This document shows, in pieces, positions 5,677 through 24,203 of a DNA stretch of 24,203 nucleotides. Position 1 is the first letter of the stretch; every line of letters begins with the position of its first letter. A program made the translations under genes and the position numbers. The notes below the pieces were generated by a model. The model saw only the letters and a program-made list of their open reading frames with translations, did no database searches and was not told where the DNA came from. This stretch comes from a virus (Duplodnaviria > Caudoviricetes), in the IMG/VR virus record IMGVR_UViG_3300031519_000220, positions 1-24,203 of that record. One strand, written 5' to 3'.

Positions 5677-7248
5677 ATGTCAAAAAAATATAAGTATATA
5701 ACTTCTTTTTCTAGTGAAATTAATCCTATAGAAGTTCATCAGTTAAAAGAGTCTATAGCAAATGATTCTTTAGACTCTTTAAAAAGTTTAATCCCTGAAG
5801 ATATAGATTTTGAAAAAAATATTGATCTTATTGGGGTAGCATTTAATGCCGCAGTAATAAATAAGTTTAATAAAAACGGAGATGGAATAAATTCTGTTAC
5901 AGCATCAAGAATAAAAGATTATTTCATAAATAAACCTACAAATATAGAACATCAAAAATCAAAAATTGTTGGACATGTTGTTTCTGCAGGATTTTCCGCA
6001 TATGAAACAAATGAAATTATGTCAGAAGAATTTGCGGAAAAAGAAGGGCATCCATTTAACCTTTCGCTATCTGCAGTTATTTACAAAACTATAAATACAG
6101 ATTTCGTTAATTTAGTCGAGCGTTCATTCGAAGAAGAAGATGAAATGTACAAAAAGATTTCTGCAAGCTGGGAAATCGGATTTAATAAATATCATCTCGC
6201 GCTAGGCAGTTCAAATTTAAATGAAGCAGAAATTATTTCTGACGAAAATCAAATTTCAGAAATGAGATCATTTTTAAAGCAAAATGGTGGCAGCGGAAAA
6301 ACTGAAGATGGAGTAGATGTCTTTAGGCTTATAGTAGGAGAAGTGTATCCCCTCGGAATAGGCTTCACGACTAATCCAGCTGCCGATGTAAAAGGAATGA
6401 CACCCTTAAAAAAAACAAAGGTTTCGTTAAAAATTAAAGACTCAAGAGATGCAGGAGAAAATAATTTAGAAAAAAAATCAGAAAAAAGTTCCCATTTATC
6501 CGAAAAAGATGTATTTCTAAGCAAGAAACCCAATGACTTACAAACTATGAATCAATCAGAAATCCTAGAAAAGTTACAAGAGATCCTCGCTAAGAGTTCC
6601 GACTCCGACGTTACTGAAAAGGTAGTTGCTAATGTAAATAAACTTTTACACGAAACAATCCTTGAGAAGAACGAAATTTGGAAAAAAGAAAAAGACTCTC
6701 TTGAAAATGAAAAAGCTCAAATCACTGAAGACGCACAAGCAGCAAAAGACGAACTTGAAAAAGTAAAGGCTGACCTTAGCGACACTCATGAGAAGCTTAA
6801 TACAATTAAAACAGAATTTGAGGCAAAGATTGCTTCTGAGAAATTTAATCAAAGAATGGAAGAGATTGACTCCGCGTTTGATCTGGAAGATGAAGATCGT
6901 AAGATTATCGCTTCTGAATTAAAGGGTTTAGGAAACGAAAACTCTCAATTCTCTGAATATCTTGAAAAGCTTAATGCTTCCTGGAAGTACAAAACAAAAG
7001 CCTTCAAGGAAGAGCAAGAAAAATTATTCGAAGAAAAGGTTCAAGCAGAAATCGAAACCCGCTTGACCGAAATGTCCACCAAGGCAAATGAAGAAGGAGC
7101 TGAAGAAGTCGCTGAAGCTGCTATTGAAAATGCAGAAAAGGACCAAGAATTACCTAATAATAATGCTGAAGCATGTGAAGAAGAACTCTCAATGAGAGAA
7201 AAATTTACGAAAGCATTCAATAAGGAAGATATTTCAATCCAATATTAA
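5677..7248 (+). CDS. Prohead maturation protease fused to coiled-coil scaffold
   Basis: N-terminal NKNGD...KPTNIEH...IVGHV...SASWEIG...GIGFTTNPA resembles HK97/assemblin-type proteases (His and Ser candidates). The C-terminal ~230 aa is an E/K-rich coiled coil. ATG 5677 (MSKKY) is preferred over GTG 5662, which is part of the motif. Confidence 0.8.
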   Translation: MSKKYKYITSFSSEINPIEVHQLKESIANDSLDSLKSLIPEDIDFEKNIDLIGVAFNAAVINKFNKNGDGINSVTASRIKDYFINKPTNIEHQKSKIVGHVVSAGFSAYETNEIMSEEFAEKEGHPFNLSLSAVIYKTINTDFVNLVERSFEEEDEMYKKISASWEIGFNKYHLALGSSNLNEAEIISDENQISEMRSFLKQNGGSGKTEDGVDVFRLIVGEVYPLGIGFTTNPAADVKGMTPLKKTKVSLKIKDSRDAGENNLEKKSEKSSHLSEKDVFLSKKPNDLQTMNQSEILEKLQEILAKSSDSDVTEKVVANVNKLLHETILEKNEIWKKEKDSLENEKAQITEDAQAAKDELEKVKADLSDTHEKLNTIKTEFEAKIASEKFNQRMEEIDSAFDLEDEDRKIIASELKGLGNENSQFSEYLEKLNASWKYKTKAFKEEQEKLFEEKVQAEIETRLTEMSTKANEEGAEEVAEAAIENAEKDQELPNNNAEACEEELSMREKFTKAFNKEDISIQY

Positions 7249-9191: not shown

Positions 9192-9590
9192 ATGAATAAA
9201 AAAAGAAAGTATGTTAAGAAAACAGAGGCAAAAAAAGAACAGAATCAAGAGATGGAAATCGCTGATGGAGTAAGCACGGAAGGAAGCCATCAAACATTAA
9301 GCGAAATCCTTGGTCAGAAACAAAAGAATCCATTTGAGGTATCCAGCTCTTCGGAGCTTGATGATAAGATGTCAAACATGACACTAATAGATCTTCAGAA
9401 ATTAGCTGTAAAAGCTGGGGTGTTTCCGTCAGGAACAAAACCATCCTTGAAGACAAAGATTCAAAAAGCTTATTCTGCAGCCAATAGGGGGGCAGGAAGG
9501 ATTACTCCTGCTCCAAGTAATCCAATCATGGACCCAAGGTCAAAAGAGGGCATAGAGGCCGCCAGGAAGCTTAAAGAGCTATTGTCGTAA
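9192..9590 (+). CDS. Hypothetical protein with SAP/HeH-like motif
   Basis: MTLIDLQKLAVKAGVFPSGTKPSLKTKI resembles the helix-extension-helix SAP/Rho-N pattern; SD-like AAGGA upstream. Confidence 0.6.
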   Translation: MNKKRKYVKKTEAKKEQNQEMEIADGVSTEGSHQTLSEILGQKQKNPFEVSSSSELDDKMSNMTLIDLQKLAVKAGVFPSGTKPSLKTKIQKAYSAANRGAGRITPAPSNPIMDPRSKEGIEAARKLKELLS

Positions 9591-10231
9591 TGGGCTATAC
9601 CCAGATAGGTAATATAGCATCAGGAATTCTTCAATATCAGTTCGATTATATCACTGGTGCTGAAGAGCAATCCATAGAGCTAAATTTAATATCTGGATCG
9701 CTGAATGGACTAGTTGGAGATTTAAACAATCAATTGAATCAGAATTTTGATATACTAGATGGAGAGGTTTACCCAAAACTTCAAAATGTAGAAATCTCAA
9801 TACTTGAAGATTTATATCTCAGAGACTACAATAATAAGCAGGCCTCAAAGTTACTAAGAGGAGTATATACTACAGATACCGCTGGATCAATTGGGGGAGA
9901 AGCGGATTGGGTAGAAATTAGCGAGGGCGATACCACTATTAGAAGATCTGCGAATTCGAGCGCAAATAGTGCATCCACACGAATTACTTTATCGAGAGAG
10001 TTTAAAAATCTATCCGCAGAAGCAGCTCAAAGAATTAAAGAAGGGGTGTATTCATACAATATGTATGGGGCGTCACCAAGGCAGGTAGCTGGATCGGATG
10101 GATTAAATACAGGAAAAAAGGCTACAAAACATGTAGACTGTGAGCCAACTCCAACTCCTAGTCCTAGTCCATCTCCTAGTCCATCTCCTAGTCCGACTCC
10201 TAGTCCGACTCCGACCCCTACAGCGACTTAA
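9590..10231 (+). CDS. Probable head-tail adaptor with C-terminal Pro-Ser/Thr repeat
   Basis: Position after MCP; helical N-terminus and WVEISEGDTTIRR beta-hairpin typical of adaptor proteins; coupled to the upstream gene via TAATG. Confidence 0.55.
   Translation: MGYTQIGNIASGILQYQFDYITGAEEQSIELNLISGSLNGLVGDLNNQLNQNFDILDGEVYPKLQNVEISILEDLYLRDYNNKQASKLLRGVYTTDTAGSIGGEADWVEISEGDTTIRRSANSSANSASTRITLSREFKNLSAEAAQRIKEGVYSYNMYGASPRQVAGSDGLNTGKKATKHVDCEPTPTPSPSPSPSPSPSPTPSPTPTPTAT
10145..10228 (+). repeat. Low-complexity (PS/PT)n coding repeat
   Basis: CCA ACT CCA ACT CCT AGT CCT AGT CCA TCT... encodes PTPTPSPSPSPSPSPSPTPSPTPTPTAT. Confidence 0.9.
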
Positions 10232-11217
10232 ATTCCATGAAGATCCATTAGGTCTTTCATTGAAAGGCTTCCTCCTTTCTTTTCAGCTTCTTCATGTAGG
10301 TTTTTATCGCTTTGTTTCTTTTCCACACCAAGATACTCAAGATCTTCATTTGTCGCACCCATAATGGTTGATGCTCCAGCTTCTGGATTAGTCAGTTGGT
10401 CTTTAGCTTTTTCTCTAGCGCTATCAGATGCATTTCCAAAATCAAGTAGGGCATCTGGGTCTTTTCTTATTTTTTCTGGGATATTATCGTATCTTTCAAA
10501 AATATTTTTAAATATTCTTGTATAAACAATGGTTTTCAATTGATTATCGGTTAAATCAACGATAGGCTTTCCGAAAAAAGAAACTGGATCGTCACAAAAA
10601 GGAAAATAAATATAAAAGAAATCCTGTAAAATAAGAAGCTTAATATTTTTTTCAGAAAATTTTCCTGAAATATCATTGTAGCTCATTATATATTTAGACA
10701 TAGATTCGGCATCAAGGTCTACAACCTCATTGCCTTTAAAAACTGTATCAGATAAAGCCTTATCCTTAAAGAAAGAATTTAAAATATAGAAATCATTTGC
10801 TCTGCTGCTGGCAAATCTTTCTGCAGTGTGGCCAATAATTTCTTGTTTTTGTATTAGCTTCTCGTTGAGTTTTTCTCGCTCAATCCTCACTGTTTCATTA
10901 TGGGCATCAATTGAGCTTTTAAGATACAAAGCCTTCTTGCTGTTGACTAAATTAGCAATGAATTCAGTTTGTCTCTCTATAAAAATATCGTCATCTTTTT
11001 CCCAGAACCCTTCTTCTATCTGAAAATCGAGGTTCTCTCTTTCTGTAGGAACACCTTTTTTAATGGCATGGCTTAGGTGCTTTTGGTAAACTTGATTATA
11101 CTCTACTTGATCATGAGTAGAGAAATGTTTAATATACACCTTTTTTCCATCTATGTAAGATTCCGAAACACCGATGCTTATATCTCTAAATAAGAGCCTT
11201 GCATCTTCAATTTCCAT
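10228..11217 (-). CDS. Hypothetical protein, candidate tail assembly chaperone (paralog of 11236..12003)
   Basis: 329 aa ORF; shares AIKKGVPT and IIGHTAERFA...FYILNSFF with its neighbour's CIKRGILT and LFNHTADIKA...WYMINLTY. The function is inference. Confidence 0.6.
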   Translation of the reverse strand: MEIEDARLLFRDISIGVSESYIDGKKVYIKHFSTHDQVEYNQVYQKHLSHAIKKGVPTERENLDFQIEEGFWEKDDDIFIERQTEFIANLVNSKKALYLKSSIDAHNETVRIEREKLNEKLIQKQEIIGHTAERFASSRANDFYILNSFFKDKALSDTVFKGNEVVDLDAESMSKYIMSYNDISGKFSEKNIKLLILQDFFYIYFPFCDDPVSFFGKPIVDLTDNQLKTIVYTRIFKNIFERYDNIPEKIRKDPDALLDFGNASDSAREKAKDQLTNPEAGASTIMGATNEDLEYLGVEKKQSDKNLHEEAEKKGGSLSMKDLMDLHGI

Positions 11218-11235
11218 TTACAAAATATGGAACAC

Positions 11236-12003
11236 TTAGATTTTATCTTCTTCTAAATCTTTTTCTAATGATTTAAAGTCTTCTTCTGTTGCATTTGTAC
11301 TAAAATACCAAAAACTAAGAAAAGAAAGAAGCTTAGATCTTAAAGATTCATAAAATTCATCTTCTGACTCTTCTTTTTCATAATAAGAATCTTCTTTTTC
11401 TTCAGCAGTATCTCCTTTAAATAAAGGCTCGTAAAAATCATCTTCATCACTATCTTTTTTTACATAAGTAAGATTTATCATATACCAAAGCAAAGATTTA
11501 TTCTGAGCTTTAATATCTGCAGTATGATTAAATAAAGCTTGGTAAGAAGATTCAAGATCAACAATCCTTTTCCTTGTGTTAATCATATCTTCATCAATTT
11601 CGCTACCCTTCTTTTTATCTGAAGAATTTTTTGTCTTTTTTATATCTAGCTTTAGCCATTTGTTTTGCATTTCGGCAAGTTTAGCATAAAGCCTGGTGAG
11701 TTCTAGGGCATCTTCTTCTGATAGTAAGCCTCCAGTATCAGAGTACTTTTTAGCAAGCATTGCTTTGGTTAAGATCCCCCTCTTAATGCATCTACTCATT
11801 TCGACACTAAATTCCATGTCGGCATCTTCGACTTGTCTTCTGGTAGGCTGGCTTATTCTTATCCTGTGAAGGACATCTTCTTCTACGGTTGAAGTTTCTT
11901 TAACTTCCTCCATCTTCCCAGTCTCTTTATTTTTTCTTTTTTTTGTAGATTCTTTTTCTACTTCTTCTTTTTTATCTACTGTAAATGAGTATACTTCTTT
12001 CAT
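11236..12003 (-). CDS. Hypothetical protein, candidate tail assembly chaperone
   Basis: 255 aa charged helical protein in the inverted cassette. The ORF is solid; the function is inferred. Confidence 0.6.
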   Translation of the reverse strand: MKEVYSFTVDKKEEVEKESTKKRKNKETGKMEEVKETSTVEEDVLHRIRISQPTRRQVEDADMEFSVEMSRCIKRGILTKAMLAKKYSDTGGLLSEEDALELTRLYAKLAEMQNKWLKLDIKKTKNSSDKKKGSEIDEDMINTRKRIVDLESSYQALFNHTADIKAQNKSLLWYMINLTYVKKDSDEDDFYEPLFKGDTAEEKEDSYYEKEESEDEFYESLRSKLLSFLSFWYFSTNATEEDFKSLEKDLEEDKI

Positions 12004-12007
12004 GGTA

Positions 12008-12295
12008 TTATTTGAATTTAAAGCTAATTATAAATTTATCTGAATCGTTTTCAATATTTCTCATAGCATTATTGCCATAATCTAAGATTTTCTTTCTTAG
12101 GTACTTTCTTTTTTCCTCGCCGAAATAATCAGATTGAGATACTAAGCTATGATAGTCCGATGGAATAGATTCGTAAAGTTTCTTAAAGTTAATAGAGTGA
12201 TCTATATGCAAGTCCTCTATAAGAGTCAAGAAGTCAACAAATAGTTTCTTGGTATTATCCTTGAGCTCTAAACTTAACATTTTTTCTGCGTCCAT
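12008..12295 (-). CDS. Hypothetical protein, first gene of inverted cassette
   Basis: 95 aa ORF, ATG 6 nt downstream of a -10 box, tightly packed with the next gene. Confidence 0.7.
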   Translation of the reverse strand: MDAEKMLSLELKDNTKKLFVDFLTLIEDLHIDHSINFKKLYESIPSDYHSLVSQSDYFGEEKRKYLRKKILDYGNNAMRNIENDSDKFIISFKFK

Positions 12296-12301
12296 TTAAA
12301 T

Positions 12302-12330
12302 ATAATAATAAAAATTAAACGATTTTTCAA
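12302..12330 (-). promoter_or_regulatory. sigma70-type promoter, probably leaderless
   Basis: Minus strand reads TTGAAA (12330-12325), 17 bp, TATTAT (12307-12302), 6 nt, ATG (12295). Confidence 0.65.
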
Positions 12331-12335
12331 TATAT

Positions 12336-12349
12336 GTGTAATAAATAAT
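12336..12349 (+). promoter_or_regulatory. GTGTA motif, putative late promoter
   Basis: GTGTAATAAATAAT directly followed by ATG 12350. Confidence 0.55.
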
Positions 12350-12823
12350 ATGGCTTCATTGATTAATAACAATTTAAAAGCTGCAATTGAGCAAGCGATA
12401 GATGACATGCATGAAACTTTTGCTAGATCAATAATTGCCTATAAAGACTCTAAAAGAGTAATAATTAGTACAAATGAAGATTATAATTATTTGTATAAAA
12501 ATGTAAACGGAAGTATAGAGGAATCAATACAGCATACTGTTCAATTTGATACATTTAAAGCTAGAATACTTTATGCCGACAAACAAGGCCAGCAAATGAT
12601 CGATGGAGATGCAACGGCATCAATAAAGGTTGAAAGGCCAATTGGCGAAGTAAGAATAAAAGTTGACCAAGCGGGGTACGATTACATAAAAGATGCTAAA
12701 AGGATAGAAATAGACGGGACTTTATTCTATAAAAATTCCGATGTAAGGAAACACGGACTTCTATCCCCTAGGTATTATACATACTATTTAAGTCCTACAG
12801 ATTCCTTAGAAGATAGTGAGTAA
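12350..12823 (+). CDS. Probable head closure (stopper) protein
   Basis: 157 aa beta-rich (RIEIDGTLFY; YYTYYL), in the neck position. Confidence 0.5.
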   Translation: MASLINNNLKAAIEQAIDDMHETFARSIIAYKDSKRVIISTNEDYNYLYKNVNGSIEESIQHTVQFDTFKARILYADKQGQQMIDGDATASIKVERPIGEVRIKVDQAGYDYIKDAKRIEIDGTLFYKNSDVRKHGLLSPRYYTYYLSPTDSLEDSE

Positions 12824-13424
12824 AGTAAAAGTTACAGTTAACCAAGTTGGGCTATCCAAGGAAATAAAGTCTAAAGTACACTTAGATAAAAACCTGAACA
12901 AAGAAGTAGAACAACAAGGAAGAAGGAATTTTGAAAAAATAAAAAAAGATTTCATTTCAGAATTTTTAACTCATCCAGTAACAAGGGCAATAGAAGGGTC
13001 TGGCAGCTCAATAGGAATAATAAGTTATGGAGACCTAAGGTCTTTTATTGGCTTTGACAACGGCACGAATCCGATAGCTCCAATAGAAAAGATATTGCAA
13101 GATAAACTTTTCGTAAAGTATGTAGATTTCAACAGAAGAGGGAGGGCCAAGTTTTTTATTAATATTCCGTCAGAGGAAGAAATAGTGGAAGTCAGCCCAA
13201 TGCCCTGGGCTGGAGGGATAAGCTGGGCAAAAGGGATAGAAAACGGAATACCAAATTTTGGAAAATATTTAAACAGGCAAGGGTTAGGCATGTCAAGGTC
13301 TGGGGAAGGTATACAGGTAAAAAACGATATCAGGAAATCGAAATTCACACCAAAGCCATATGTCTTTAAAATGTTAAATAAATACTTAAAGATATTCAAT
13401 AAGTCTGGATTTTTGCTAAACTAA
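12816..13424 (+). CDS. Probable neck / tail completion protein (HK97 gp10-like position)
   Basis: 202 aa basic protein with WAKGIENG and C-terminal PKPY; GTG start overlapping the previous gene. Confidence 0.5.
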   Translation: MSKVKVTVNQVGLSKEIKSKVHLDKNLNKEVEQQGRRNFEKIKKDFISEFLTHPVTRAIEGSGSSIGIISYGDLRSFIGFDNGTNPIAPIEKILQDKLFVKYVDFNRRGRAKFFINIPSEEEIVEVSPMPWAGGISWAKGIENGIPNFGKYLNRQGLGMSRSGEGIQVKNDIRKSKFTPKPYVFKMLNKYLKIFNKSGFLLN

Positions 13425-14296
13425 TGAAACCTTTATTCCAACATAAAGCTACAACAAGCTTCGCAATGTGGTTTGATAACTATTTATCATGCCATGCTGA
13501 TTCTTTTAAAAATAAAACTGGAGTTCTATACCCTCAGGATGATGATAGATTGGATCCAAGATTTTCATCTTATGCCTCTCCCTATAAACAATGGCTGTTT
13601 GATTCTGCAAATCAATCGTCTGATGTTCCTACTGGAATATATATTAATGGAGAATTAATAGAAAGAGGCCAGAGTGGAATGTCAATAGATTTTGATAATG
13701 GAAGAGTGTTAATTGGCTCAGAATATAAAAATGAAATAAATGAAGTAAGCGGTTCGTTTTCAGTAAAAGATATAAATATTTATTTAGCAGATCAATCTGA
13801 AGAAAGCTTGATTATAGAAAACAAATACGACCTGAATAGTAGGTTTAGGCAGTCAACCTCAGGAATAAATCCTTATGATCAAGTTATACCAGCAGCATTT
13901 ATATCAATGGAACAAAGCAATAATACTCCAATTGCCTTTGGAGGGGAAGATAAAACAACTTTAAGTTATAGGTCAGTTATTTTTGCGGAAAATCTTTATT
14001 TTTTGGACGGAGCAATATCTTTATTTACTGATTCTAAAAATTCATCCTTTCCAGATATCGGATTTACAGGATACCCGCTTAATGAGAAAGGAGATCTAAA
14101 GGCTGAATTTACTGGTGAAGGGTATAGCTACTCAGAGCAGTGTAAGAATTATCAAGGAAGCAATATGTTTTACATAGAAAACGTTTACGCATCAAAAATA
14201 AACGACAGAGTTAATTCCCAAATGAACCCTGGAACATTCTTGGGGTTTATTGATTTTGAGGTTTCAATGTTTAGATTTCCAGGGCAATCAAAATAA
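13424..14296 (+). CDS. Probable tail terminator / tail completion protein
   Basis: 290 aa immediately before the tail tube; PAAFISME...AFGGED segment typical of terminator-like proteins; TAATG coupling. Confidence 0.5.
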   Translation: MKPLFQHKATTSFAMWFDNYLSCHADSFKNKTGVLYPQDDDRLDPRFSSYASPYKQWLFDSANQSSDVPTGIYINGELIERGQSGMSIDFDNGRVLIGSEYKNEINEVSGSFSVKDINIYLADQSEESLIIENKYDLNSRFRQSTSGINPYDQVIPAAFISMEQSNNTPIAFGGEDKTTLSYRSVIFAENLYFLDGAISLFTDSKNSSFPDIGFTGYPLNEKGDLKAEFTGEGYSYSEQCKNYQGSNMFYIENVYASKINDRVNSQMNPGTFLGFIDFEVSMFRFPGQSK

Positions 14297-14376: not shown

Positions 14377-15726
14377 ATGGCTACTTCAAGAAACAGAGTT
14401 ATTTATCAAAGCGAGGCACTCTTTGTGGGTGCGGCGGCTACGGGATATCATGCGACAGGCGAACACATTGCTGCGGGTGCTCCAGGGGTTAATCCAGGAT
14501 TAGATTGGACCACCGACGGTTCCATTAATGAGGCATCAGCGGCAGAAAGAGTAGATGCTGAGTCTATGTACACAGGTATTGGCTCAAATACAATTGTCAG
14601 GCAACTTAAACGTGTCCAAAATGCGAATTATAGTTTTACTGTTAATAGAACTGATGTAAATCAATTCGGCCAGCTTTCAAGAATTGATAGTCTGGTAACA
14701 GAAACCCCAACGGTGTCTTTAGATTTTAGTTATCTCTTGACTGATGGAGAAAACGAAAGGCTTCTCAATTTTGCAGTTAATGGGGCAACGAACTCTCTTA
14801 GTGGACAAATGGATCCAATAGTCGGAGGAAAAGGTCAAAACTTTTTCATTCTTACTGTCCCAGAAGGACAAGATGCAGTCAAAGGAGACAAACTTAAACC
14901 TGCAAGCAATACAGTTATATCTTTAGGTAACGGATTTGTTTCTGATTACTCAGTAGAAGCTGCAGTAGGTGCATTGCCAACTGCTTCTCTTACAGTAGAG
15001 GGATTCAATATTAAAAGTAACACGAACCTTACTGGAGATTCGACAGCTGGACAAGACGGTGGTTTTGGTACTGGAGTAATGACTCCCGCTATCGATCCAA
15101 ATGATGGAAGCAAGGTATGCTCTCGCTGGTTTGCTCTTCCACAAGCAGAAACAGGTGACGGAGTTACTGCTCTTCGCCCAGGCGACATTACTTTGGATCT
15201 GCAAAATGCAGCATTGTTCTCCAAGCAAGTTGATGGAAATGCAAACAACTTGATACCTGGAGCAGCTCATGTTCAGTCGGTTTCAATTAGTGTTCCTATG
15301 GCTCGTTCAGTCTTACAAAGACTTGGAAACACTTTCGGATTCTCGAGAGAGATTGATTTCCCAGTGAATGTTACTATTTCAGTAAATGCTCTTGTATCTG
15401 AACTTAAAGACGGAGACATGCTCGATCTTCTTTGCGGAGATGATGCAAAGGATCTCAAGATTACCTTGAGGAACCCAGAGTGTGTTACCTGTGAGAGAGG
15501 AGAAAGCGCAGTAGGAATGGTCTTTGAAGTCAAAGGTGCTATTCTTGAAAGCGAATCTTACTCTTCCTCTATTGGAGATAACAAGTCGGTTGATCTTACT
15601 TTTACCGCTCAGATCGGTGGAGCAACAGACACGACCAAGGGTTTATTTATCTCTGGATCAACAACCCATGGTAAAATGCCAAGATACTGGGATGATAGTG
15701 ATATGTTCATAAACGACGGTTATTGA
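14377..15726 (+). CDS. Major tail tube protein
   Basis: 449 aa, G/S/T/A-rich and beta-rich, with two internal tube-like repeats (RVQNANYSFTVNR..FG / HVQSVSISVPMAR..LG); followed by a strong terminator, as MCP is. Confidence 0.75.
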   Translation: MATSRNRVIYQSEALFVGAAATGYHATGEHIAAGAPGVNPGLDWTTDGSINEASAAERVDAESMYTGIGSNTIVRQLKRVQNANYSFTVNRTDVNQFGQLSRIDSLVTETPTVSLDFSYLLTDGENERLLNFAVNGATNSLSGQMDPIVGGKGQNFFILTVPEGQDAVKGDKLKPASNTVISLGNGFVSDYSVEAAVGALPTASLTVEGFNIKSNTNLTGDSTAGQDGGFGTGVMTPAIDPNDGSKVCSRWFALPQAETGDGVTALRPGDITLDLQNAALFSKQVDGNANNLIPGAAHVQSVSISVPMARSVLQRLGNTFGFSREIDFPVNVTISVNALVSELKDGDMLDLLCGDDAKDLKITLRNPECVTCERGESAVGMVFEVKGAILESESYSSSIGDNKSVDLTFTAQIGGATDTTKGLFISGSTTHGKMPRYWDDSDMFINDGY

Positions 15727-15808: not shown

Positions 15809-16939
15809 ATGATGAGAAACTCTATAAAGTATAATACCATAGGTATGCTTGTAAGCAAAAGTCCAGGATTTAATCCTATTGATACTGGAATATACCAGTT
15901 AAATAGGGTGCAAAACTCAGAGTACTCAATATCTGTGAATAGGCAAAATATATCTCATATTGGGGATGACGATTTTTTAGTAAGAAAAATATATTCAGCA
16001 CCAACTGTAGAGTTTAGTTGCACATATTTGTCTACTGATGGGAAAAACGAGCACAACTTAGGATTTAACATCGCTAGATCTGGAGACTCCTTACCAGTAG
16101 ATACCTTTACGAGCGGCATAGATAAAGATATAAATTTATTTGCAATAGTTTCTCAACCTCAGCAAGATTTTAATTTTTTAACTGGGGACAGTTTGTCTGG
16201 ACTAGATGCCATTGGAATAGGGAATTGCTTTTTAAAGAATTATTCAATGAACGCAACAGTAGGATCCTTCGTTTTAACTAATTTAACTTTTGATGGATCA
16301 CATATAAGGTATGATAAATTTGGAGATCACGAATTTAACGGAGAAAAAATGGATATACCGAACCCTTCGGTAAACAGAATTGGCGACGGAGATTATAGTG
16401 TGGTTTCGGGATTTAACTTTGATGGATGGGAAGCTTCTTCTGGCATTAGTGCAATTAATCATGGATCTCTATCAATGAATCTGCCTGATTCTGCCCTGGA
16501 TATAGGGGGATCAGAATCAGATATCAGCATTCAATCTTTCGATATAAATATTCCTATAGAAAGAATAGACTTTGATGGACTGGGTTCTAACTATAAATAT
16601 TTTAGAAAAATAAATTACCCGCTGCTTGGTACATTAAGTGTAAGTGCATTAGCAAGCGATTTTGAAACAGGCATTCTAGATAGAATAATATGTAACGATA
16701 AAGAATACACCGTAGAAATATCAGTAGACAGAAGTGTTTGCTCTACAATATTTGCATGTGGGGGAGAGGGTGTAAGCGATAAAGCTATGAAATTTAAAAT
16801 TAATGGATTACTATTAGACTCTTATTCTTTTTCTAATTCAATAGGGAAAGGCCAAAACTCTTCTGTAAATTTAAATTATTCATTCTCTATAACAAAAAAT
16901 AAAAGAAAGGGTATTTTTGCTAGTGGAAGCTTCAATTAA
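15809..16939 (+). CDS. Minor tail tube-like protein (paralog of 14377..15726)
   Basis: Collinear similarity: QLNRVQNSEYSISVNR vs QLKRVQNANYSFTVNR; YLSTDGKNE vs YLLTDGENE; GIGNCFLKNYS vs SLGNGFVSDYS; SYSFSNSIG vs SESYSSSIG. Confidence 0.75.
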   Translation: MMRNSIKYNTIGMLVSKSPGFNPIDTGIYQLNRVQNSEYSISVNRQNISHIGDDDFLVRKIYSAPTVEFSCTYLSTDGKNEHNLGFNIARSGDSLPVDTFTSGIDKDINLFAIVSQPQQDFNFLTGDSLSGLDAIGIGNCFLKNYSMNATVGSFVLTNLTFDGSHIRYDKFGDHEFNGEKMDIPNPSVNRIGDGDYSVVSGFNFDGWEASSGISAINHGSLSMNLPDSALDIGGSESDISIQSFDINIPIERIDFDGLGSNYKYFRKINYPLLGTLSVSALASDFETGILDRIICNDKEYTVEISVDRSVCSTIFACGGEGVSDKAMKFKINGLLLDSYSFSNSIGKGQNSSVNLNYSFSITKNKRKGIFASGSFN

Positions 16940-16967: not shown

Positions 16968-19900
16968 ATGCCGTCAATCAATGTAGATGTAGGAGCTAAT
17001 ATTAGCTTGAATCAATCTTCTGTAAGAAGAGTGAGGTCTGATGCAAAATCATTATTGCGGGATGTTACTGGCGGAAGAGGCGGAGTTAATTTTAATGTTA
17101 ACTCAAAGTCTTTTACTCAACCGTTGGGTCAAATTACGAATGCCTCTAATGAATTCAGCAAATCACTTGAAGCTTCAAATGCCAGAGTTTTAGCTTTTGG
17201 AGCTTCAGTTGCAATAATCAATGCTGTTCAGGGGGCATTTAGAAGTTTAGTAGAGACATCCATTGATCTGCAAAAAACTTTAACAGACATTAATGTGGTT
17301 CTAGGCTTATCCTTAGAAGGCATTGAGAATTTTGGAACTAAATTATTTGGTGTTGCAAAAAATACCGCACAAAGTTTTGGCGTTGCGGCAGAAGCAGCTC
17401 TAGAATTTTCAAGGCAAGGCCTATCGGTTGAGGAAACCCTTAGAAGGACAAACGATGCCCTTACATTAACTCGACTAACTGGACTTGATGCATCAGAATC
17501 TGTGTCTGGATTAACTGCGGCAATCAATGGTCTTGGGGATGCAGCATTAACTACCACCGACATTATTGATAAATTTGCAGCGGTTGATGTAAAATTTGCA
17601 GTAAGTGCTGAGGATTTAGTTAGAGCACTAGCAAGAACAGGTGCAGTTGCTAGTGATGTAGGATTAGATATTGATAAATTATCTGGGATGGTAGCAGCCT
17701 TACAGCAAACTACAGCTAGAGGTGGACCAGTTATAGGTAACGCTTTAAAAACAATTTTTACCAGGTTACAGAGGCCAGCCACTATAAGCTCACTAGAAGA
17801 TATGGGGGTTGTTACTAGAGATTTATCTGGCACCCTTTTAAGCGCAGACTCAATACTAACTAATCTCTCTAAATCATTTGATGGATTAAGCCAGTCCCAG
17901 CAATCTAATACTGTTCAAATGGTGGCGGGAATATTTCAAGCAAACATACTTAGGGCATTGCTAAAAGATTTAAAAAAAGACCAAAGTCTTTTTGCTCAAG
18001 CTACAGAAGTTGCTAGTGAAGCAAACGGTGAGGCGGCTAAGAAAACAGAGCAATTAAATAAAACTCTCGCTGCCCTAGGAAGCCAAACTCTTACATCTTT
18101 TCAGGCTCTTGCAAAAACTATTGGTGACATCGCTCTTGCCCCAGGAATTAAAGATATACTTAGCGGATTAAAGTCGGTGTCCGAAACATTCAATGATCTT
18201 TTTGGAGGAGGAGAAAACCAAGGAAATGATTTTGCAAAAGGGTTACTAAAAGGAATAGGTAATATTCTCACTGGCCCTGGACTAGCGGTTCTTGCTGCTG
18301 TTTTTGGAAAACTAATATATAATGTTACAAGATTTGCGGCATCTGGTGTGCAGGATATATTAGGAATAGTTTCTGCAAAAGAAAAGCAAAAAGCAGTAGA
18401 GCAATCAATATTAACCCTACTTCAAACAAATAAAGGAGTAACTGAAAGCTTAAACAAGTTGGAACAAAGCAGGGGAGAGCAAGAAAAATACATCCTTGGA
18501 TTAATAAAAATGCAAACAAGTGCATTAAGGGAGCAAGAGGCCCTAGCAAGGGCTGTAGCTCCTGGTTTAGTGAGGAAAGGTGTTCAGTCAGATCTAATAA
18601 TAAAAAGAGGAGGCAGAACCGCCTCAGGCGGGCTAGTTCCAGAAGAAAATGCGGCATTAGGTTTGATGCCAGCGCAAAAAGAAAGAATAGGGGCATTTAA
18701 GGGAGGATACTCTCCAGGGGCAGTAAGCACAATGGATGTAAAAGGCATGGGCACTGTTGTATATAACAAAGCCGAAACGGTTAAAAAGTTCCCAAATTTT
18801 TCTCAACCTGCAATTATGCCTCCAGAAAAAAGCAGGGCAGGAAAAAACTACAAAGAGAAGTTTTCAAGCACTCACGGCTTTAACCCATATGCAAACGACG
18901 GACTCGTTCCAAATTTTGGATTAAGACCAAATAGGCAATTGCTAAATAGCATACCTAATATGAAATTGCTAACCTCTCCGCTTGGTTATTCTAAGTTTAA
19001 TAGTGATACAGATTTTGCGAAAAAAACTCTAGCTATATCAGAACTAGAAAGAATGCGATACGGAGGAAAACAAGCGAGATCTAGATATGCGCATCAAGAA
19101 GGAACTTTAAAATTTGACACAGATGTTGAGCATTTAAGAGGGGGGATTTTTACAACTAGAATAAGAGATAGCTTAGGAAGAGAAAAAGAGTTAAGCTTAG
19201 GCAAGCTACTAGAAAAAGCTGGAATAAAATCAGTAAGAACAGAATTAGAACTAGGTAGAATTCCATATGCAGAGGCAACTAATACTCCTCTAGATAAAAA
19301 ACTTCCAGAAGATATAACAAAAGTTCTAGCAAATACAAAAAATAGCAATAATGACAGAAAAGGAGAACTGGGAGAAGCATCTTATTTAAAAGTATTTGGA
19401 GCAAAAGATAAAAATGGAAATCTAATAAAAGATGGAGACCAGTTTGCGGAGACAGCTATAGCGGGATATGTAGGTACAACAAAAAATTCTAGAGTAGACG
19501 CTATAATGAAGGGGGCAAAATCTGCAGAGATAAAAGCTGGGGGAGCCAGCCTTACCGATGTTGCCCAAAAAGGAATGAGTTTATATTCAAATCGTGGATT
19601 TATTAATGAAATAATGAACGTAGGAGGAAGAGAAATTCAAAGAGGAACACATCACGGAATGCCTCAAGTTGCCGAAAGAGGAAAGCAAATCATGTATGTA
19701 GCCGAGCAGATGAGGCTCAAGAATATGAAAAACTCATTACTTGAACTGCATAAATTAAAAATGTGGCCAGCAAGAGATGGATCTCATGAAGCGAATATAA
19801 GATATAAATATGCTAAAGATTTGGCTGGCGGCGATAAACTAGGGTCAGCAATCATGCAAGGAAGGTTTAAGGTTACAGATGCAGACAGAAAAATGCTTGA

Positions 19901-22900
19901 TGACTATAGCTTGCACGATGGATTGGTTCCTAATGCTTCGGCTGGATTCATTCCTCGTTATAATCCAGATGCATTTGATAATGATAGAACTTATCAGTTT
20001 ATGCAAAACAAGCATAAAGAGGTAACTAGACCATTTTTTGAAAGACTCAGGGCGGGAGAGGCATACGGAAGTACGGATGCAAGGATTAATGATAGCTTAA
20101 TGAAGAGTGGCGAAGGATCTCCTGCCGAAGGAACATTTAAATCGACTGAAAGAGGAGAGCGCAAAATAGACGCACCAAGAGCTTTATCATTTTTTGAAAA
20201 ATCTGCAAAAAAAATTGGGCCAGTTGCGGCTGCTCAATTTATGATAGATCACGAAATGATGACAGATAGGGAAGCTCAAAAAGCAATACAAGATTTAAGA
20301 GGAGAAGCCGCACGAAGATCAGAAGGTGGCACTCAATCTAAAATGCCTATAGTTAAGCATTTAGATGAAGTAGAAAAGAATGCAGGTAAATTAAAATTTT
20401 TCGAAAAACAATATCCTGAAGATGCAGCAAAGTTTATGAGGGGTGTAGTCACAGGGGAGTCCGAAACGAGAAAAGGATATAAAAAAATACTCCCTAAAAA
20501 ATCAGGGCCTCAAATTGGAACAGACAGAATAAGATCAAGAAGAATGTCTCTACATAACTTAATTAGAAATAAAACAAAATCGCCGCATGGAGAATACAAA
20601 AACCTTTCTGATTTCCGAAATCAAACAGGGGCATTTGCTAGCAGCAATACTAGTTCAACTGAATCAGTTTTACGAGAAGAACGAGCAAGAAGAACTAGGG
20701 AAGCTTACATGCAGAAGATGCAGAAAGACGAGGGTTCAACTAGTAATCGCAAGTATAATTCTGTAACGGGGCAATTTGGAGCCAACATAGGCACTAAGAC
20801 AAGAAAAGCATTAGTTTCAGAAATAGGCATGGTGCCTGGCCCAGGATATAAGACGATCAACAGGCAAGCCGAAAAAAGTAAAGAACTTAATATCGGGGGG
20901 AATTCAAGTGTTAAATCGGTGTTGCAAGAAAGAACTCGATATAACCCAGAGACATTTAAGCAAGAAAAATTAGGAACAGATAGAGTGCTGTCAGTAGGCG
21001 GGCTTTATTCTCGTGGTGGAGAATCTGGGGCATTAGTACTTAAAAGATTGCTTAAAGAAATAACTTCTGCTGCACGTTCTGGTCAGCCATACACTGCTAT
21101 TGATGCAGGCCCAGTAATAGGGCCAAGGATTCCGTCAGTCATAATAAAAGCAAAAACAGTTTTAGACAGAATAAGGGAAAAAGAAGCAAAGAAGGCAAAT
21201 ACAGGAATGGCTCATACCAATATACCTCATATGAGGCTCCAAGGTTTTTTGACTCCCAGGAAACTGTTCAAAGGGCTGGCATCTAGAAGAAGGGAAAATA
21301 TAACAGAAGGAGGAACGATAAAAAGAGACCAAAGATCTCATTCTCAATATCAATTTGGAGAAGAAGGAGTACTAAAAGATTCGCTTAAGAATCTTTTTAA
21401 GAGCAGCTCGGGCAAATATTTAGGGCGGCGAGGAGAAGAGACTTCTCTTAGGAAGTTTCTTAAGTCACAAGATATTAGATATCTGGAAAAGTCAGTCTAT
21501 GGGGAGGGAGGGTTTAGCTCTGGATTAATACCTAATTTTTCAGAGTACATTTTTGATGCAGATAGAATCGCAGGAAAAGAAAAAAATCCAATACTTAATG
21601 CCATACTAGAAAGCGACAGTCGTATTAAAAAAGATTTGATTATAGGTCCATCTGGAGCAGGAAAAACAGAATATGCAAAAACTTTAGGAAATCCATTTAT
21701 TAATAGTGTTGATGATATAGCAAAAGCCACACAAATAACAATGCTATCTGGAGCAGGCAGAGCAAAAGATGAAAGTATGATGTCCGCTGGCTTGCAAAAA
21801 ATAATATCTTCCGTAAATAATTCAGGGGGGAATATTAACTTTCTTGAGGCAGGGGACGATCAAATAAAGAATCAAAGGCATGGCAGGATAGCTAAAGCTA
21901 TGGAAGGAGCCGCAGGATCAAGCGACCTGAGAAGTGTAGGGCAATTAAAGGGCACTGGGTATGCGCCTCTTAACCAACTTGACTTTATGTCAAAAATTAA
22001 AAAAGTGGCAGGCAGCTTTTCTGTTATAAAAAACCTTGGAGCAGGGAAGGGTTTCTTAAAAAATCAAATTCCAAATTTCGCAAGAGGATTCGGTTTTATG
22101 CCAGAAGATGTAAAATCAAAAATAAGAATGGGTAGAGCGCTTAACCTAGAAAAAAGAAACAGAGCTCTAGAAGGAAGAGACCCCAAATTGTTCGATCAAC
22201 ATTATCCCCATCCTTTTCTTAATAGAGGATCAAAAGAAAGATTAGATTTCCATAGGGCAAAGGGAGATGGACATAATGAGCAAATAATGGAATCAAAATT
22301 AAATTTTAAAAATTTTGAAATAAGTGGGGCGATTAGAAGAGACGCCAATAAGGGGCTAATATCTGAAGAAGAAAAGATTAGATATTCAAATTTATTAAAA
22401 GATAGTAAGAATCCAAATGGAGAATTAATAAATTTAGATAAAAAATACATAGGGGGAACATCATTAGGGGGAATGTCTGAAACAGACAAACTTCAAAAAT
22501 TAAGCCGCTATCAAATGCAATTATCTAATTTACAAAAAACGAAAAAAGATTTAAAGTCTCTTGACTTTAAAGATGGATACGATGATTTTGAATATGCTGC
22601 AAAATTAAGAAACTCAATAGTAAATCAAGAAAGTATTCTTCCTAAGGGCCCAGCATTAAAAGAATTAAAATCATATCAAAAACTAAAAAATACATATTCC
22701 CAATATTTAGACAGAACAAGATACTTGGACTCAGATACAAGATTGTCAATAGGGGCAGTTAGAAAATTCGGAAGAAACCCTCATGAAAAAGTAATAAATG
22801 ATTTGACTGGCACACACCTAGGGTCTAAGGGAGGTATAGCGAGATCAATTGGGGCGAAAGATGGCGACGAAGTATTTGATTACTTGACATATCAAACAAA

Positions 22901-24203
22901 AAAAGAATTACTTGAGGGGAAGGGTGTTGGTCATGTACTAAGAGACAACAACAGGAAGAGATATCTGAGCGATGGATTAGTTCCTAATTTTGGAATATTA
23001 AGCAACTTAACGAAAAGGTTTAAGACTTTTCCTCAGCAAAGTTCTCAAATTCATGCTTACAAAAAAGAACAAGATTTAAAAAATAATCCAAATTTCAGAA
23101 TGGGAATGGCGAAAGAGATGTACAACTCAATGTCCAATCCGCGTAGACAAATACGAAACAATCTCCCCGACTCATTAAGCATCAAGAATTGGATTAAAAA
23201 AAATAGAGAATTCCATGGTTCAAATATGGGGATAAAATCTGGAGTAGTTCAGGCTGAAGGTCTGGCAAAAAAAGATATCGCTAAAAACCAGATAGAAAAA
23301 ACAAAACATGAAACCTCATTAAGGTTAGGAGCGGCTAGACGTGTCGCTCTAAGCGGACCAGCGCTCCCAACAATAGGAGAAAAGATTGCAGGAGCAGAAA
23401 AGAAATCATTGGCCAGGAGGATATGGAAAGGCTCTGAGCAAGAAGGATGGCAATCACTTGAAAAACGAAGACAAAAGGTTTCCGCAGGGCCAGGAGTAGG
23501 TCATATGTATAGTATACTGCCTAAAGAAAAAGGATACAACGCTCCTTTTGAACCTAATACCATGTTAAAATTTAAAGGAAATGAAGGGCATGACATAGAA
23601 TCTAGATACAGAACAAGAGGCCGCAACGCATCATATAAAGAACCCGCTAGGCATGGAACGGTTTACGACAAAGTGCTAGAGGTGGGAGAAATTGCATCCA
23701 CGAAACAAGGGCAATCTGTATACAAAAGAATAATTAATGAAATATTAGCTTCAGCTAAATCAGGAAGACCTTATACCGTACTAGATGCTGGGCATATAGT
23801 AGGAGAAAGAATCCCCAGCGCTATAGTTGGACTAAAGAAGATCCTTGACAGGCGAAGAGAAAAATCAGAATTCTTTATTCCTAAAATTAGACTCGAAGGA
23901 GAAATGAATTCTCCAGAGTTTTTGGAAAGAAAAATAAAGATGAATAATGCTCCTGAGGGTGGATTGTTCGGAAAGCAGGGACAAAAATTCAAAAATGCAC
24001 TAGATACTCTTGATCCTACGGGGCAAAGAATCAGCCATACAAACAATGTAAGGCTGGAAAGCTTAAAATTCGAGTTAAACGAAGGGTTTGTTCCTAACTT
24101 TGCAAAGCTATCAACATTAAGGGGAAAACTTTTTAATAAAAAACAAAAAAAGGATGAAGGGTTAAGATTTAATACAACAAAAGAAGGGTTCAGGATTCCT
24201 CAT
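16968..24203 (+). CDS. Tape measure protein with multi-domain cargo region, 3' truncated (>=2412 aa)
   Basis: ATG 16968 with SD; the frame appears open to the window end (I translated 18600-24203 fully with no stop, and no stop-terminated ORF from 16968 is in the track). N-terminal TP901-type core EFSRQGLS...IIDKFAAVD...TARGGPVIGNALKTIFTRL...LEDMGV and a hydrophobic segment near 18270-18370. Confidence 0.9.
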   Translation, partial: MPSINVDVGANISLNQSSVRRVRSDAKSLLRDVTGGRGGVNFNVNSKSFTQPLGQITNASNEFSKSLEASNARVLAFGASVAIINAVQGAFRSLVETSIDLQKTLTDINVVLGLSLEGIENFGTKLFGVAKNTAQSFGVAAEAALEFSRQGLSVEETLRRTNDALTLTRLTGLDASESVSGLTAAINGLGDAALTTTDIIDKFAAVDVKFAVSAEDLVRALARTGAVASDVGLDIDKLSGMVAALQQTTARGGPVIGNALKTIFTRLQRPATISSLEDMGVVTRDLSGTLLSADSILTNLSKSFDGLSQSQQSNTVQMVAGIFQANILRALLKDLKKDQSLFAQATEVASEANGEAAKKTEQLNKTLAALGSQTLTSFQALAKTIGDIALAPGIKDILSGLKSVSETFNDLFGGGENQGNDFAKGLLKGIGNILTGPGLAVLAAVFGKLIYNVTRFAASGVQDILGIVSAKEKQKAVEQSILTLLQTNKGVTESLNKLEQSRGEQEKYILGLIKMQTSALREQEALARAVAPGLVRKGVQSDLIIKRGGRTASGGLVPEENAALGLMPAQKERIGAFKGGYSPGAVSTMDVKGMGTVVYNKAETVKKFPNFSQPAIMPPEKSRAGKNYKEKFSSTHGFNPYANDGLVPNFGLRPNRQLLNSIPNMKLLTSPLGYSKFNSDTDFAKKTLAISELERMRYGGKQARSRYAHQEGTLKFDTDVEHLRGGIFTTRIRDSLGREKELSLGKLLEKAGIKSVRTELELGRIPYAEATNTPLDKKLPEDITKVLANTKNSNNDRKGELGEASYLKVFGAKDKNGNLIKDGDQFAETAIAGYVGTTKNSRVDAIMKGAKSAEIKAGGASLTDVAQKGMSLYSNRGFINEIMNVGGREIQRGTHHGMPQVAERGKQIMYVAEQMRLKNMKNSLLELHKLKMWPARDGSHEANIRYKYAKDLAGGDKLGSAIMQGRFKVTDADRKMLDDYSLHDGLVPNASAGFIPRYNPDAFDNDRTYQFMQNKHKEVTRPFFERLRAGEAYGSTDARINDSLMKSGEGSPAEGTFKSTERGERKIDAPRALSFFEKSAKKIGPVAAAQFMIDHEMMTDREAQKAIQDLRGEAARRSEGGTQSKMPIVKHLDEVEKNAGKLKFFEKQYPEDAAKFMRGVVTGESETRKGYKKILPKKSGPQIGTDRIRSRRMSLHNLIRNKTKSPHGEYKNLSDFRNQTGAFASSNTSSTESVLREERARRTREAYMQKMQKDEGSTSNRKYNSVTGQFGANIGTKTRKALVSEIGMVPGPGYKTINRQAEKSKELNIGGNSSVKSVLQERTRYNPETFKQEKLGTDRVLSVGGLYSRGGESGALVLKRLLKEITSAARSGQPYTAIDAGPVIGPRIPSVIIKAKTVLDRIREKEAKKANTGMAHTNIPHMRLQGFLTPRKLFKGLASRRRENITEGGTIKRDQRSHSQYQFGEEGVLKDSLKNLFKSSSGKYLGRRGEETSLRKFLKSQDIRYLEKSVYGEGGFSSGLIPNFSEYIFDADRIAGKEKNPILNAILESDSRIKKDLIIGPSGAGKTEYAKTLGNPFINSVDDIAKATQITMLSGAGRAKDESMMSAGLQKIISSVNNSGGNINFLEAGDDQIKNQRHGRIAKAMEGAAGSSDLRSVGQLKGTGYAPLNQLDFMSKIKKVAGSFSVIKNLGAGKGFLKNQIPNFARGFGFMPEDVKSKIRMGRALNLEKRNRALEGRDPKLFDQHYPHPFLNRGSKERLDFHRAKGDGHNEQIMESKLNFKNFEISGAIRRDANKGLISEEEKIRYSNLLKDSKNPNGELINLDKKYIGGTSLGGMSETDKLQKLSRYQMQLSNLQKTKKDLKSLDFKDGYDDFEYAAKLRNSIVNQESILPKGPALKELKSYQKLKNTYSQYLDRTRYLDSDTRLSIGAVRKFGRNPHEKVINDLTGTHLGSKGGIARSIGAKDGDEVFDYLTYQTKKELLEGKGVGHVLRDNNRKRYLSDGLVPNFGILSNLTKRFKTFPQQSSQIHAYKKEQDLKNNPNFRMGMAKEMYNSMSNPRRQIRNNLPDSLSIKNWIKKNREFHGSNMGIKSGVVQAEGLAKKDIAKNQIEKTKHETSLRLGAARRVALSGPALPTIGEKIAGAEKKSLARRIWKGSEQEGWQSLEKRRQKVSAGPGVGHMYSILPKEKGYNAPFEPNTMLKFKGNEGHDIESRYRTRGRNASYKEPARHGTVYDKVLEVGEIASTKQGQSVYKRIINEILASAKSGRPYTVLDAGHIVGERIPSAIVGLKKILDRRREKSEFFIPKIRLEGEMNSPEFLERKIKMNNAPEGGLFGKQGQKFKNALDTLDPTGQRISHTNNVRLESLKFELNEGFVPNFAKLSTLRGKLFNKKQKKDEGLRFNTTKEGFRIPH
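18630..24101 (+). repeat. Dispersed peptide repeat G-[LF]-[VI]-P-N-F within tape measure gene
   Basis: GLVPE 18630, GLVPNF 18900, GLVPNA 19920 + GFIPRY 19944, GLIPNF 21522, GFLKNQIPNF 22050-22079, GLVPNF 22974, GFVPNF 24084. Confidence 0.9.

Follow-up and report, generated by a model that had tools for sequence, protein, structure and literature searches.

A recurring junction peptide divides the middle of a family of phage tape measure proteins into exchangeable cassettes

We analyzed a 24,203-nucleotide stretch of viral DNA (the window), which is a whole contig and contains a phage head-tail module with most genes placed by position alone. The middle of its tape measure protein proved to be a variable row of modules, each fenced by a short recurring peptide, and a comparison with relatives indicated that this cassette architecture is well supported. 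The array is real and family-wide, and it joins two known kinds of protein, the processed tape measures and the phage polyvalent proteins. Tape measures are usually regarded as rulers and as conduits for DNA, but in a large phage clade the central part of this ruler is a cassette array. We lean towards the view that a protease cuts at the peptide, which would free the cargo for delivery into the host at injection. If such delivery is true, it would be a second route, besides the head, for proteins that enter the cell before phage gene expression.

Profile searches confirmed the open reading frame at 16968-24203 as a TP901-type tape measure protein. Pfam PF10145 matched residues 131-321 with an E-value of 6.1e-24 (85 bits against a cut-off of 33), and 16 tape-measure families of PHROG matched the same frame, which has no stop codon up to the contig end. 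Upstream of it, profile searches indicated a terminase and PHROG gave a weak major-capsid match. The head-tail module also has putative portal and protease/scaffold genes, and the tail-tube and chaperone genes of the window (chaperone candidates at 10228-12003) were placed by position only, no family match being found for them. The best GenBank phage matches among those listed were 23-29% identical to the tape measure. Ten bins with relatives are of unrelated taxa and point to no host. The features of the gene are collected in Table 1.

Table 1. Tape measure gene of the window and the units of its cassette array, by nucleotide position
Feature	Position	Strand	Remarks
Tape measure protein gene	16968..24203	+	2412 aa; 3' end open, contig stops inside the cassette array
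Conserved TP901-type core, aa 1-550	16968..18617	+	PF10145, PHROG, homolog identity
Partial first motif TASGGLVPE (G555)	18618..18644	+	PSSM 5.9; full motif here in many relatives
Domain 1, ~75 aa	18663..18887	+	Fixed first array unit; invariant N600, E603, P618-P619
Motif YANDGLVPNFG (G645)	18888..18920	+	PSSM 26.0; pLDDT <50 between two folded domains
Cassette B, ~330 aa	18921..19907	+	Predicted PD-(D/E)XK-type nuclease, E...VD...EIK by eye
Double degenerate motif SLHDGLVPNA-SAGFIPRY (G985, G993)	19908..19961	+	PSSM 15.0 and 13.5
Segment C, ~515 aa	19962..21509	+	N-terminal ~330 aa, then 'GPRIP' domain (about 20955-21497)
Motif GFSSGLIPNFS (G1519)	21510..21542	+	PSSM 29.2; low pLDDT
Cassette D, ~165 aa, P-loop (GPSGAGKT)	21543..22037	+	Homologs with same borders; AAA_24 below cut-off
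Degenerate motif AGKGFLKNQIPNFA	22041..22082	+	4-residue insertion relative to AGQGFIPNF of relatives; PSSM 1.9, alone not significant
Segment E, ~293 aa	22083..22961	+	No homolog found
Motif YLSDGLVPNFG (G2003)	22962..22994	+	PSSM 27.3
Segment F, ~360 aa	22995..24071	+	N-terminal part, then second 'GPRIP' copy (about 23622-24071)
Motif ELNEGFVPNFA (G2373)	24072..24104	+	PSSM 25.9
Start of next cassette	24105..24203	+	Cut by contig end

The pattern G[LF][VI]PN[FA] occurred five times in the tape measure of the window and in none of 2000 shuffles, and the shorter G[LF][VI]P occurred seven times against a shuffle mean of 0.099. Three looser copies accompany the five strict ones. The motif glycines lie at nt 18630 (partial), 18900, 19920, 19944 (second copy), 21522, 22062 (the QIPNF form), 22974 and 24084, with G-to-G spacings of 90, 340, 8, 526, 180, 304 and 370 aa. 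A position-specific scoring matrix (PSSM) built from relatives, for which shuffled sequence gave a 95th percentile of 4.5 and a maximum of 13.9, gave six of the copies scores of 13.5-29; the first, partial one reached 5.9 and the QIPNF form 1.9. The linker coordinates and segment sizes in an earlier note on this DNA held, with the partial glycine moved to 18630 (18621 is the start of ASGG). So did its descriptions of the segments as K/R-rich (13-19% K+R against 10% in the core) and of a peptide conserved at the protein level, the codons varying from copy to copy within the gene. The 526-aa and 370-aa segments are composite.

A homolog search with aa 1-660 returned 1481 proteins, the best 120 of which were analyzed. 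All 120 carried the peptide, in 3-13 copies each; most were 45-60% identical to the window protein over aa 1-660, and many of the source contigs were ~200 kb long. A glycine stood two places before [IV]PN[FY] in 98% of 704 sites, although it was outside the search pattern. Of 536 distinct contexts, 401 had S or A at the second position ahead of this glycine (background 18%) and 358 had A, F, L, Y or M at the third (background 26%). The peptide consensus is [AFLYM]-[SA]-x-G-[FLY]-[VI]-P-N-[FY]-[AS]. The layout common to the family is core, peptide, domain 1, variable array, a second conserved domain of ~70 aa, a long second half and C-terminal FxxGG..GE units. The second half spans 1367-2689 aa after the array in the 90 complete-looking proteins of 121. 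Since complete relatives continue past the array, it is internal and not C-terminal, and the window has neither the array end nor the second half. One relative, P0097, has a 25-aa mini-cassette that occurs four times between peptides, which suggests that very short spacers are also duplicable.

The peptide was confined to the tape measure. In 81 IMG/VR loci (the best 80 of 457 plus one), we counted 468 copies in the tape measures, which total 237,193 aa, and none in 354,867 aa of other frames. These 1462 peptide-free frames included 20 capsid and 10 protease/scaffold homologs (within 10 kb), the latter mostly partial. The head genes of the window were also scanned for the peptide and none was found. 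Two of the 81 tape measures, L052 and L053, had no strict copy; as related tape measures (51% identity over aa 53-566), they may be an outgroup from which to trace how the array arose.

When the proteins were split at the peptide, we obtained 88 segment clusters, of which 42 had several members. The 121 proteins showed 86 architectures, a count that truncated proteins and undetected degenerate copies push up. There were 1952 distinct alignment ends in the cargo region; 1212 of them (62%) lay no more than 12 aa from a motif, compared with 364 (19%) for random positions. Among 59 pairs with core identity of at least 95%, 35 differed by 70 aa or more of cargo; the maximum was 1039 aa, between P0009 and P0020, whose second halves differ by 13 aa. 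Both orders were seen for 9 of 104 co-occurring cassette pairs. Module order is thus mostly kept, suggesting that exchange is mainly gain, loss and replacement and that reordering is rare. On a FastTree phylogeny of the core, raw counts taken without a shuffled-label baseline gave 12 changes for an SNase cassette (24 carriers), 9 for an ADP-ribosyltransferase-like cassette (15 carriers) and 4 for a P-loop cassette (4 carriers). The proposal of exchangeable cassettes between linkers was borne out by the breaks at the peptide and by near-identical cores with differing cargo. The pattern expected among homologs was seen in part: core and linkers are conserved and module number and identity vary, but the order is mostly kept.

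Breaks of homology at the motif would also be expected if the repeat served as a site of recombination or insertion in the DNA itself, with modules that are passengers or length filler, since crossovers could start from 30 similar bases. However, third-codon identity between copies in one gene was 0.462 against 0.474 expected from codon use (2702 comparisons). This agreement with the expectation indicates that selection acts on the peptide and not on the DNA, and it largely refutes a DNA site. Catalytic-type residues are conserved in the cassettes, which also argues against passengers, and conservation at the protein level can by itself yield crossovers at the motif. We therefore consider a DNA site highly improbable.

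Domain 1 matched all 120 homologs (the best 120 of 1481), and searches of Pfam, NCBIfam, PDB and fold libraries with it gave no match. In L085 (3583-11421), P0134, P0136, P0141, P0142 and P0144, the first slot is held by a variant domain 1 with the pattern [HN]-T-[GSD]-E-[YWFHV]-[IMV] and with internal PNF/PNY-x-GGG stretches. Cassette B groups with clusters 18 and 2 (HMM E-values of 2.7e-20 and 1.5e-7), and its slot is occupied by a divergent relative in most homologs. Library and fold searches with cassette B returned no match; the E, D and E-x-K residues are conserved in its group, and we take these to be the PD-(D/E)XK nuclease pattern. Cassette D, a P-loop domain, is likely a small kinase. 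It is 43-46% identical across nearly its full length to segments of P0002, P0007, P0009 and L027, and L085 also has a related one; all five have the same borders. It matched Pfam AAA_24 at an E-value of 0.0076, below the cut-off, and its ten best family-bearing Atlas matches fell in one clan with AAA-type names, at scores below 0.9. The enzyme motifs that had been read into several segments are weak in the window itself, where they come down to this sub-cut-off P-loop match and to the PD-(D/E)XK-type pattern seen by eye. Segment E had no match in the 120 proteins and 81 loci and no family match either, and the homolog search found none for the N-terminal parts of segments C (~330 aa) and F.

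A GPRIP domain of ~170 aa closes both segment C and segment F; its two copies are 37.7% identical over 138 columns. This domain is a separate cassette in relatives. In the window no recognisable peptide was found upstream of either copy, so C and F each comprise two or more units that the peptide does not visibly separate, and some joints would stay uncut if the peptide is a cutting signal. All 23 GPRIP loci (4 of them contigs already in the locus set) lay in giant peptide-bearing frames, with a strict peptide within 35 aa upstream of the domain in 12 of the 23. Among 1.84 billion representatives there were 29 GPRIP matches, 27 of which carry the peptide or the core; the other two are one 87-aa fragment and one 33-residue match. 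Four short matches read as tape-measure fragments. An assignment of the GPRIP domain as a GNAT acetyltransferase was unsupported, with no profile match and no usable Atlas match; its best structural Z score, from a two-domain model, was 5.2, to an unrelated editing domain.

Most of the cargo in the family is unclassified. Pfam gave no match at an E-value of 0.01 or below for 79 of the 85 cassette representatives, and none reached a curated cut-off; with so few family matches, we mostly infer effector function. The family matches in relatives included an SNase (Pfam, 6e-6) and a HAD/polynucleotide-kinase phosphatase (PHROG, 6e-6), and the representatives further matched PGDYG and, weakly, GNAT. 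Catalytic-type patterns are conserved inside cassette clusters, and the kinase, ADP-ribosyltransferase and further nuclease labels of family cassettes are putative ones assigned by eye. Candidates for host takeover and counter-defence are thereby offered by dozens of cassette families that have no classification. We calculated charge for 111 of the 121 proteins, those with a long second half. The median net charge of the cargo was +6.6 per 100 aa, compared with +1.1 in the core and -0.3 in the middle of the second half, and the cargo was net positive in 106 of 109 proteins. Cysteine made up 0.005% of the cargo and is absent from the 2412 aa of the window's tape measure, and no hydrophobic (membrane-type) 19-mer was found in 70,494 aa of cargo. 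This composition suits proteins that would be soluble and directed at nucleic acids.

We used AlphaFold to predict the structure around the peptide. For aa 540-1000 the mean pLDDT was 75.5, with values of ~90 for domain 1 and 80-97 across much of cassette B, while the peptide between them (model residues 107-115) was below 50; the other two copies lie at the model ends and are little informative. For aa 1317-1711 the mean was 61.8, the peptide was again below 50, and the low stretch continued into the thinly aligned P-loop module. The peptide is thus predicted to lie in unstructured linkers between separately folding domains. That domains do not straddle the motifs, as had been expected, is seen in both models, the second of which is weak. 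Fold searches with the two-domain models gave nothing clear (Foldseek best E-value 0.46, VIA best Z 4.8 and 5.3).

Two tape measures offer a precedent for cutting. In T5, the tape measure pb2 is cleaved after R1127 and the tail retains the two fragments (PMC10038345). Cleavage of lambda gpH, which yields gpH* and gpHC, follows tail assembly and precedes the joining of the head (PMC12617516). The accessible text of the latter paper (2025) names these two as the only tape measures shown to be cut in particles and gives the catalyst and the lambda site as unestablished. Like the protein described here, both are siphophage-type tape measures. The T5 site, SFVPR/AEGG in the GenBank record, weakly resembles both halves of the peptide and can be overlaid on it in two ways, A-x-G on [SA]-x-G or FVPR/A on FVPNF/A. 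When the family PSSM was run on pb2, the cut window ranked first, at a score of -8 against a median shuffled best of -3.2. On lambda H the best window scored 7.5, at residue 102, which is not a known cut. The C-terminal FxxGG..GE[YF]V units of relatives match lambda H 732-785 (8e-5 against two sequences), and an A-x-G-G...G-E unit was present at the C-terminus of 114 of 130 relatives, matching lambda H and not T5. No link was found between domain 1 and the C-terminal units of T5 or lambda by HMM or hhalign (best 9 columns, E-value 0.03). The [HN]-x-[GAD]-E of the variant domains resembles lambda HRGEF by eye, and profiles gave no confirmation. A connection between the peptide array and T5/lambda processing is suggestive only. 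The systems also differ: a single cut, close to the C-terminus, is known for T5 and for lambda, whereas here 3-13 copies of a longer peptide, the putative cuts, fence an internal variable array.

Five relatives of 4350-4831 aa (P0126, P0128, P0129, P0130 and P0138) also have peptide pairs within the second half and a weak second copy of the closing domain of the array. The lambda-H-like C-terminal units that most members have were not found in these five, and their place, 200-300 aa from the C-terminus, is taken by a domain 1 with flanking peptides.

With cutting as the preferred reading, the chain would be threaded unfolded into the tail tube and, once the tail is assembled, severed at every peptide, just as those of T5 and lambda are severed at one site each. 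The cut would fall either before [SA]-x-G or after PN[FY], both of which fit the T5 site. The pieces would then exit ahead of the DNA and refold, and the released modules may act as early host-takeover or counter-defence enzymes in the manner of phage polyvalent proteins. We put forward the fullest version of this model tentatively, as a possibility short of probable. In it the tail tube would be a magazine whose threaded polyprotein is cut at a ten-residue code derived from the maturation site of T5/lambda and fired ahead of the DNA as a salvo of nucleases, kinases, phosphatases and ADP-ribosyltransferases, with domain 1 self-processing, in a widespread clade of ~200-kb uncultured phages.

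The peptide could instead be a recognition or handling signal that is never cut, such as a point that keeps the tape-measure chains in register, or a site where a tail-assembly chaperone or host chaperonin binds and holds each module unfolded for threading, with the whole polyvalent chain ejected. A chaperone tag would be required once for every folded module, as is seen, and the motif combines length, hydrophobicity and a proline with a tolerance of degenerate and tandem copies. Delivery without processing is described for ArdC, TraC1 and the virion RNA polymerase of N4 (PMC5512222). On the other hand, the resemblance to the T5 cut site, in either register, and the motif-flanked unit in the C-terminal place of five relatives both speak against this reading, as does the single-chain AlphaFold model, in which docking of the flanking peptides on domain 1 was not seen. 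We regard an uncut signal as unlikely, though a serious contender.

If the peptide is indeed cut, the earlier note's proposal of the prohead protease (5677..7248) as the processor did not fare well. The peptide was found in none of the 20 capsid and 10 mostly partial protease/scaffold homologs, and lambda gpH is cut before head joining, so this enzyme is unlikely to do the cutting. We think it more probable that the activity is linked to the tail, comes from the host or is self-cleaving. ORF 5662 has the His/Ser patterns of a prohead protease by eye and no library or PDB match. Since the peptide is repeated hundreds of times, it is a ready reporter substrate for finding the cutter of the tape measure.

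The main difficulty for threading is tail length. Cargo length is not offset by the second half, so that, if the cargo is threaded, the tails of near-identical phages would differ by up to ~135 nm (by the T5 ratio of 160 nm per 1219 aa). Alternatively, the peptide might be cut before or during tail assembly, with cassettes that loop out and are released in the producing cell or packed in the head, never entering the lumen. Folded domains would be too big for a lumen already holding several tape-measure chains, and the uncompensated variation of up to 1039 aa between near-identical cores fits such early excision. However, removing the middle before assembly would part the two halves of the ruler, and the cut pieces of T5 and lambda stay in the tail, the lambda cut following tail assembly (PMC10038345, PMC12617516). 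In addition, neither of the two cassettes that we tested, D and GPRIP, was found as a free gene (for D, in a word-limited search of proteins of 91-291 aa), suggesting that fusion to the tape measure matters. Early excision thus appears improbable to us, and cutting after assembly remains the preferred reading.

The array resembles the polyvalent proteins described by Iyer et al. in 2017 (PMC5512222), in which many unrelated, often enzyme-like domains share one variable chain encoded among virion genes, and for which processing and early delivery were proposed. The cassettes of our family carry nuclease, kinase, phosphatase and ADP-ribosyltransferase-like patterns, as polyvalent proteins do; disparate activities in one chain were found as SNase, HAD-type and P-loop matches, the rest by eye, and the array gene lies among late virion genes. 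In contrast to the polyvalent carriers, which are mostly head- or MuF-linked and often have a zincin peptidase (PMC5512222), the carrier here is a tape measure with a fixed junction peptide. No HExxH (zincin) motif was found in the 2412 aa of the window protein, whose second half lies beyond the contig, and no peptidase family in 14 relatives scanned whole. Neither 'tape' nor 'linker' occurs in the main text of PMC5512222 as accessible to us. The tape measure gp96 of Thermus phage P23-45, fused to a virion RNA polymerase, is likewise a giant tape measure that brings an enzyme into the cell (PMC10770324). It has one fixed N-terminal enzyme, and the accessible text mentions no junction peptide or processing, whereas the cargo here is internal, multiple and exchangeable. 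The literature searched, which mostly excludes subscription papers, contained no description of such a cassette array, and none is described in the accessible text of PMC10713586, PMC7824862 and PMC13585406.

The window holds several other features. The gene at 172-1122, immediately upstream of the terminase, encodes an ERCC4-type nuclease (PHROG 3490, 1.6e-12) with an N-terminal C2H2-like finger. The product of 9590-10231 ends in a Pro-Ser/Pro-Thr repeat (PTPTPSPSPS...), and relatives align to its first 170-184 aa only. Three minus-strand genes lie at 10228-12295 within the plus-strand tail module. In many relatives the homolog of 10228 is on the plus strand just before the tape measure and the homologs of 12350-14296 are reversed; these differences in orientation of the 10228-14296 homologs point to inversions of the block. 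No family match was found for either of the adjacent genes at 14377-15726 and 15809-16939, which look like paralogous tail-tube-type proteins by their similar N-terminal wording (NRVIYQSEALFV / NSIKYNTIGMLV; QLKRVQNANYSF / QLNRVQNSEYSI).
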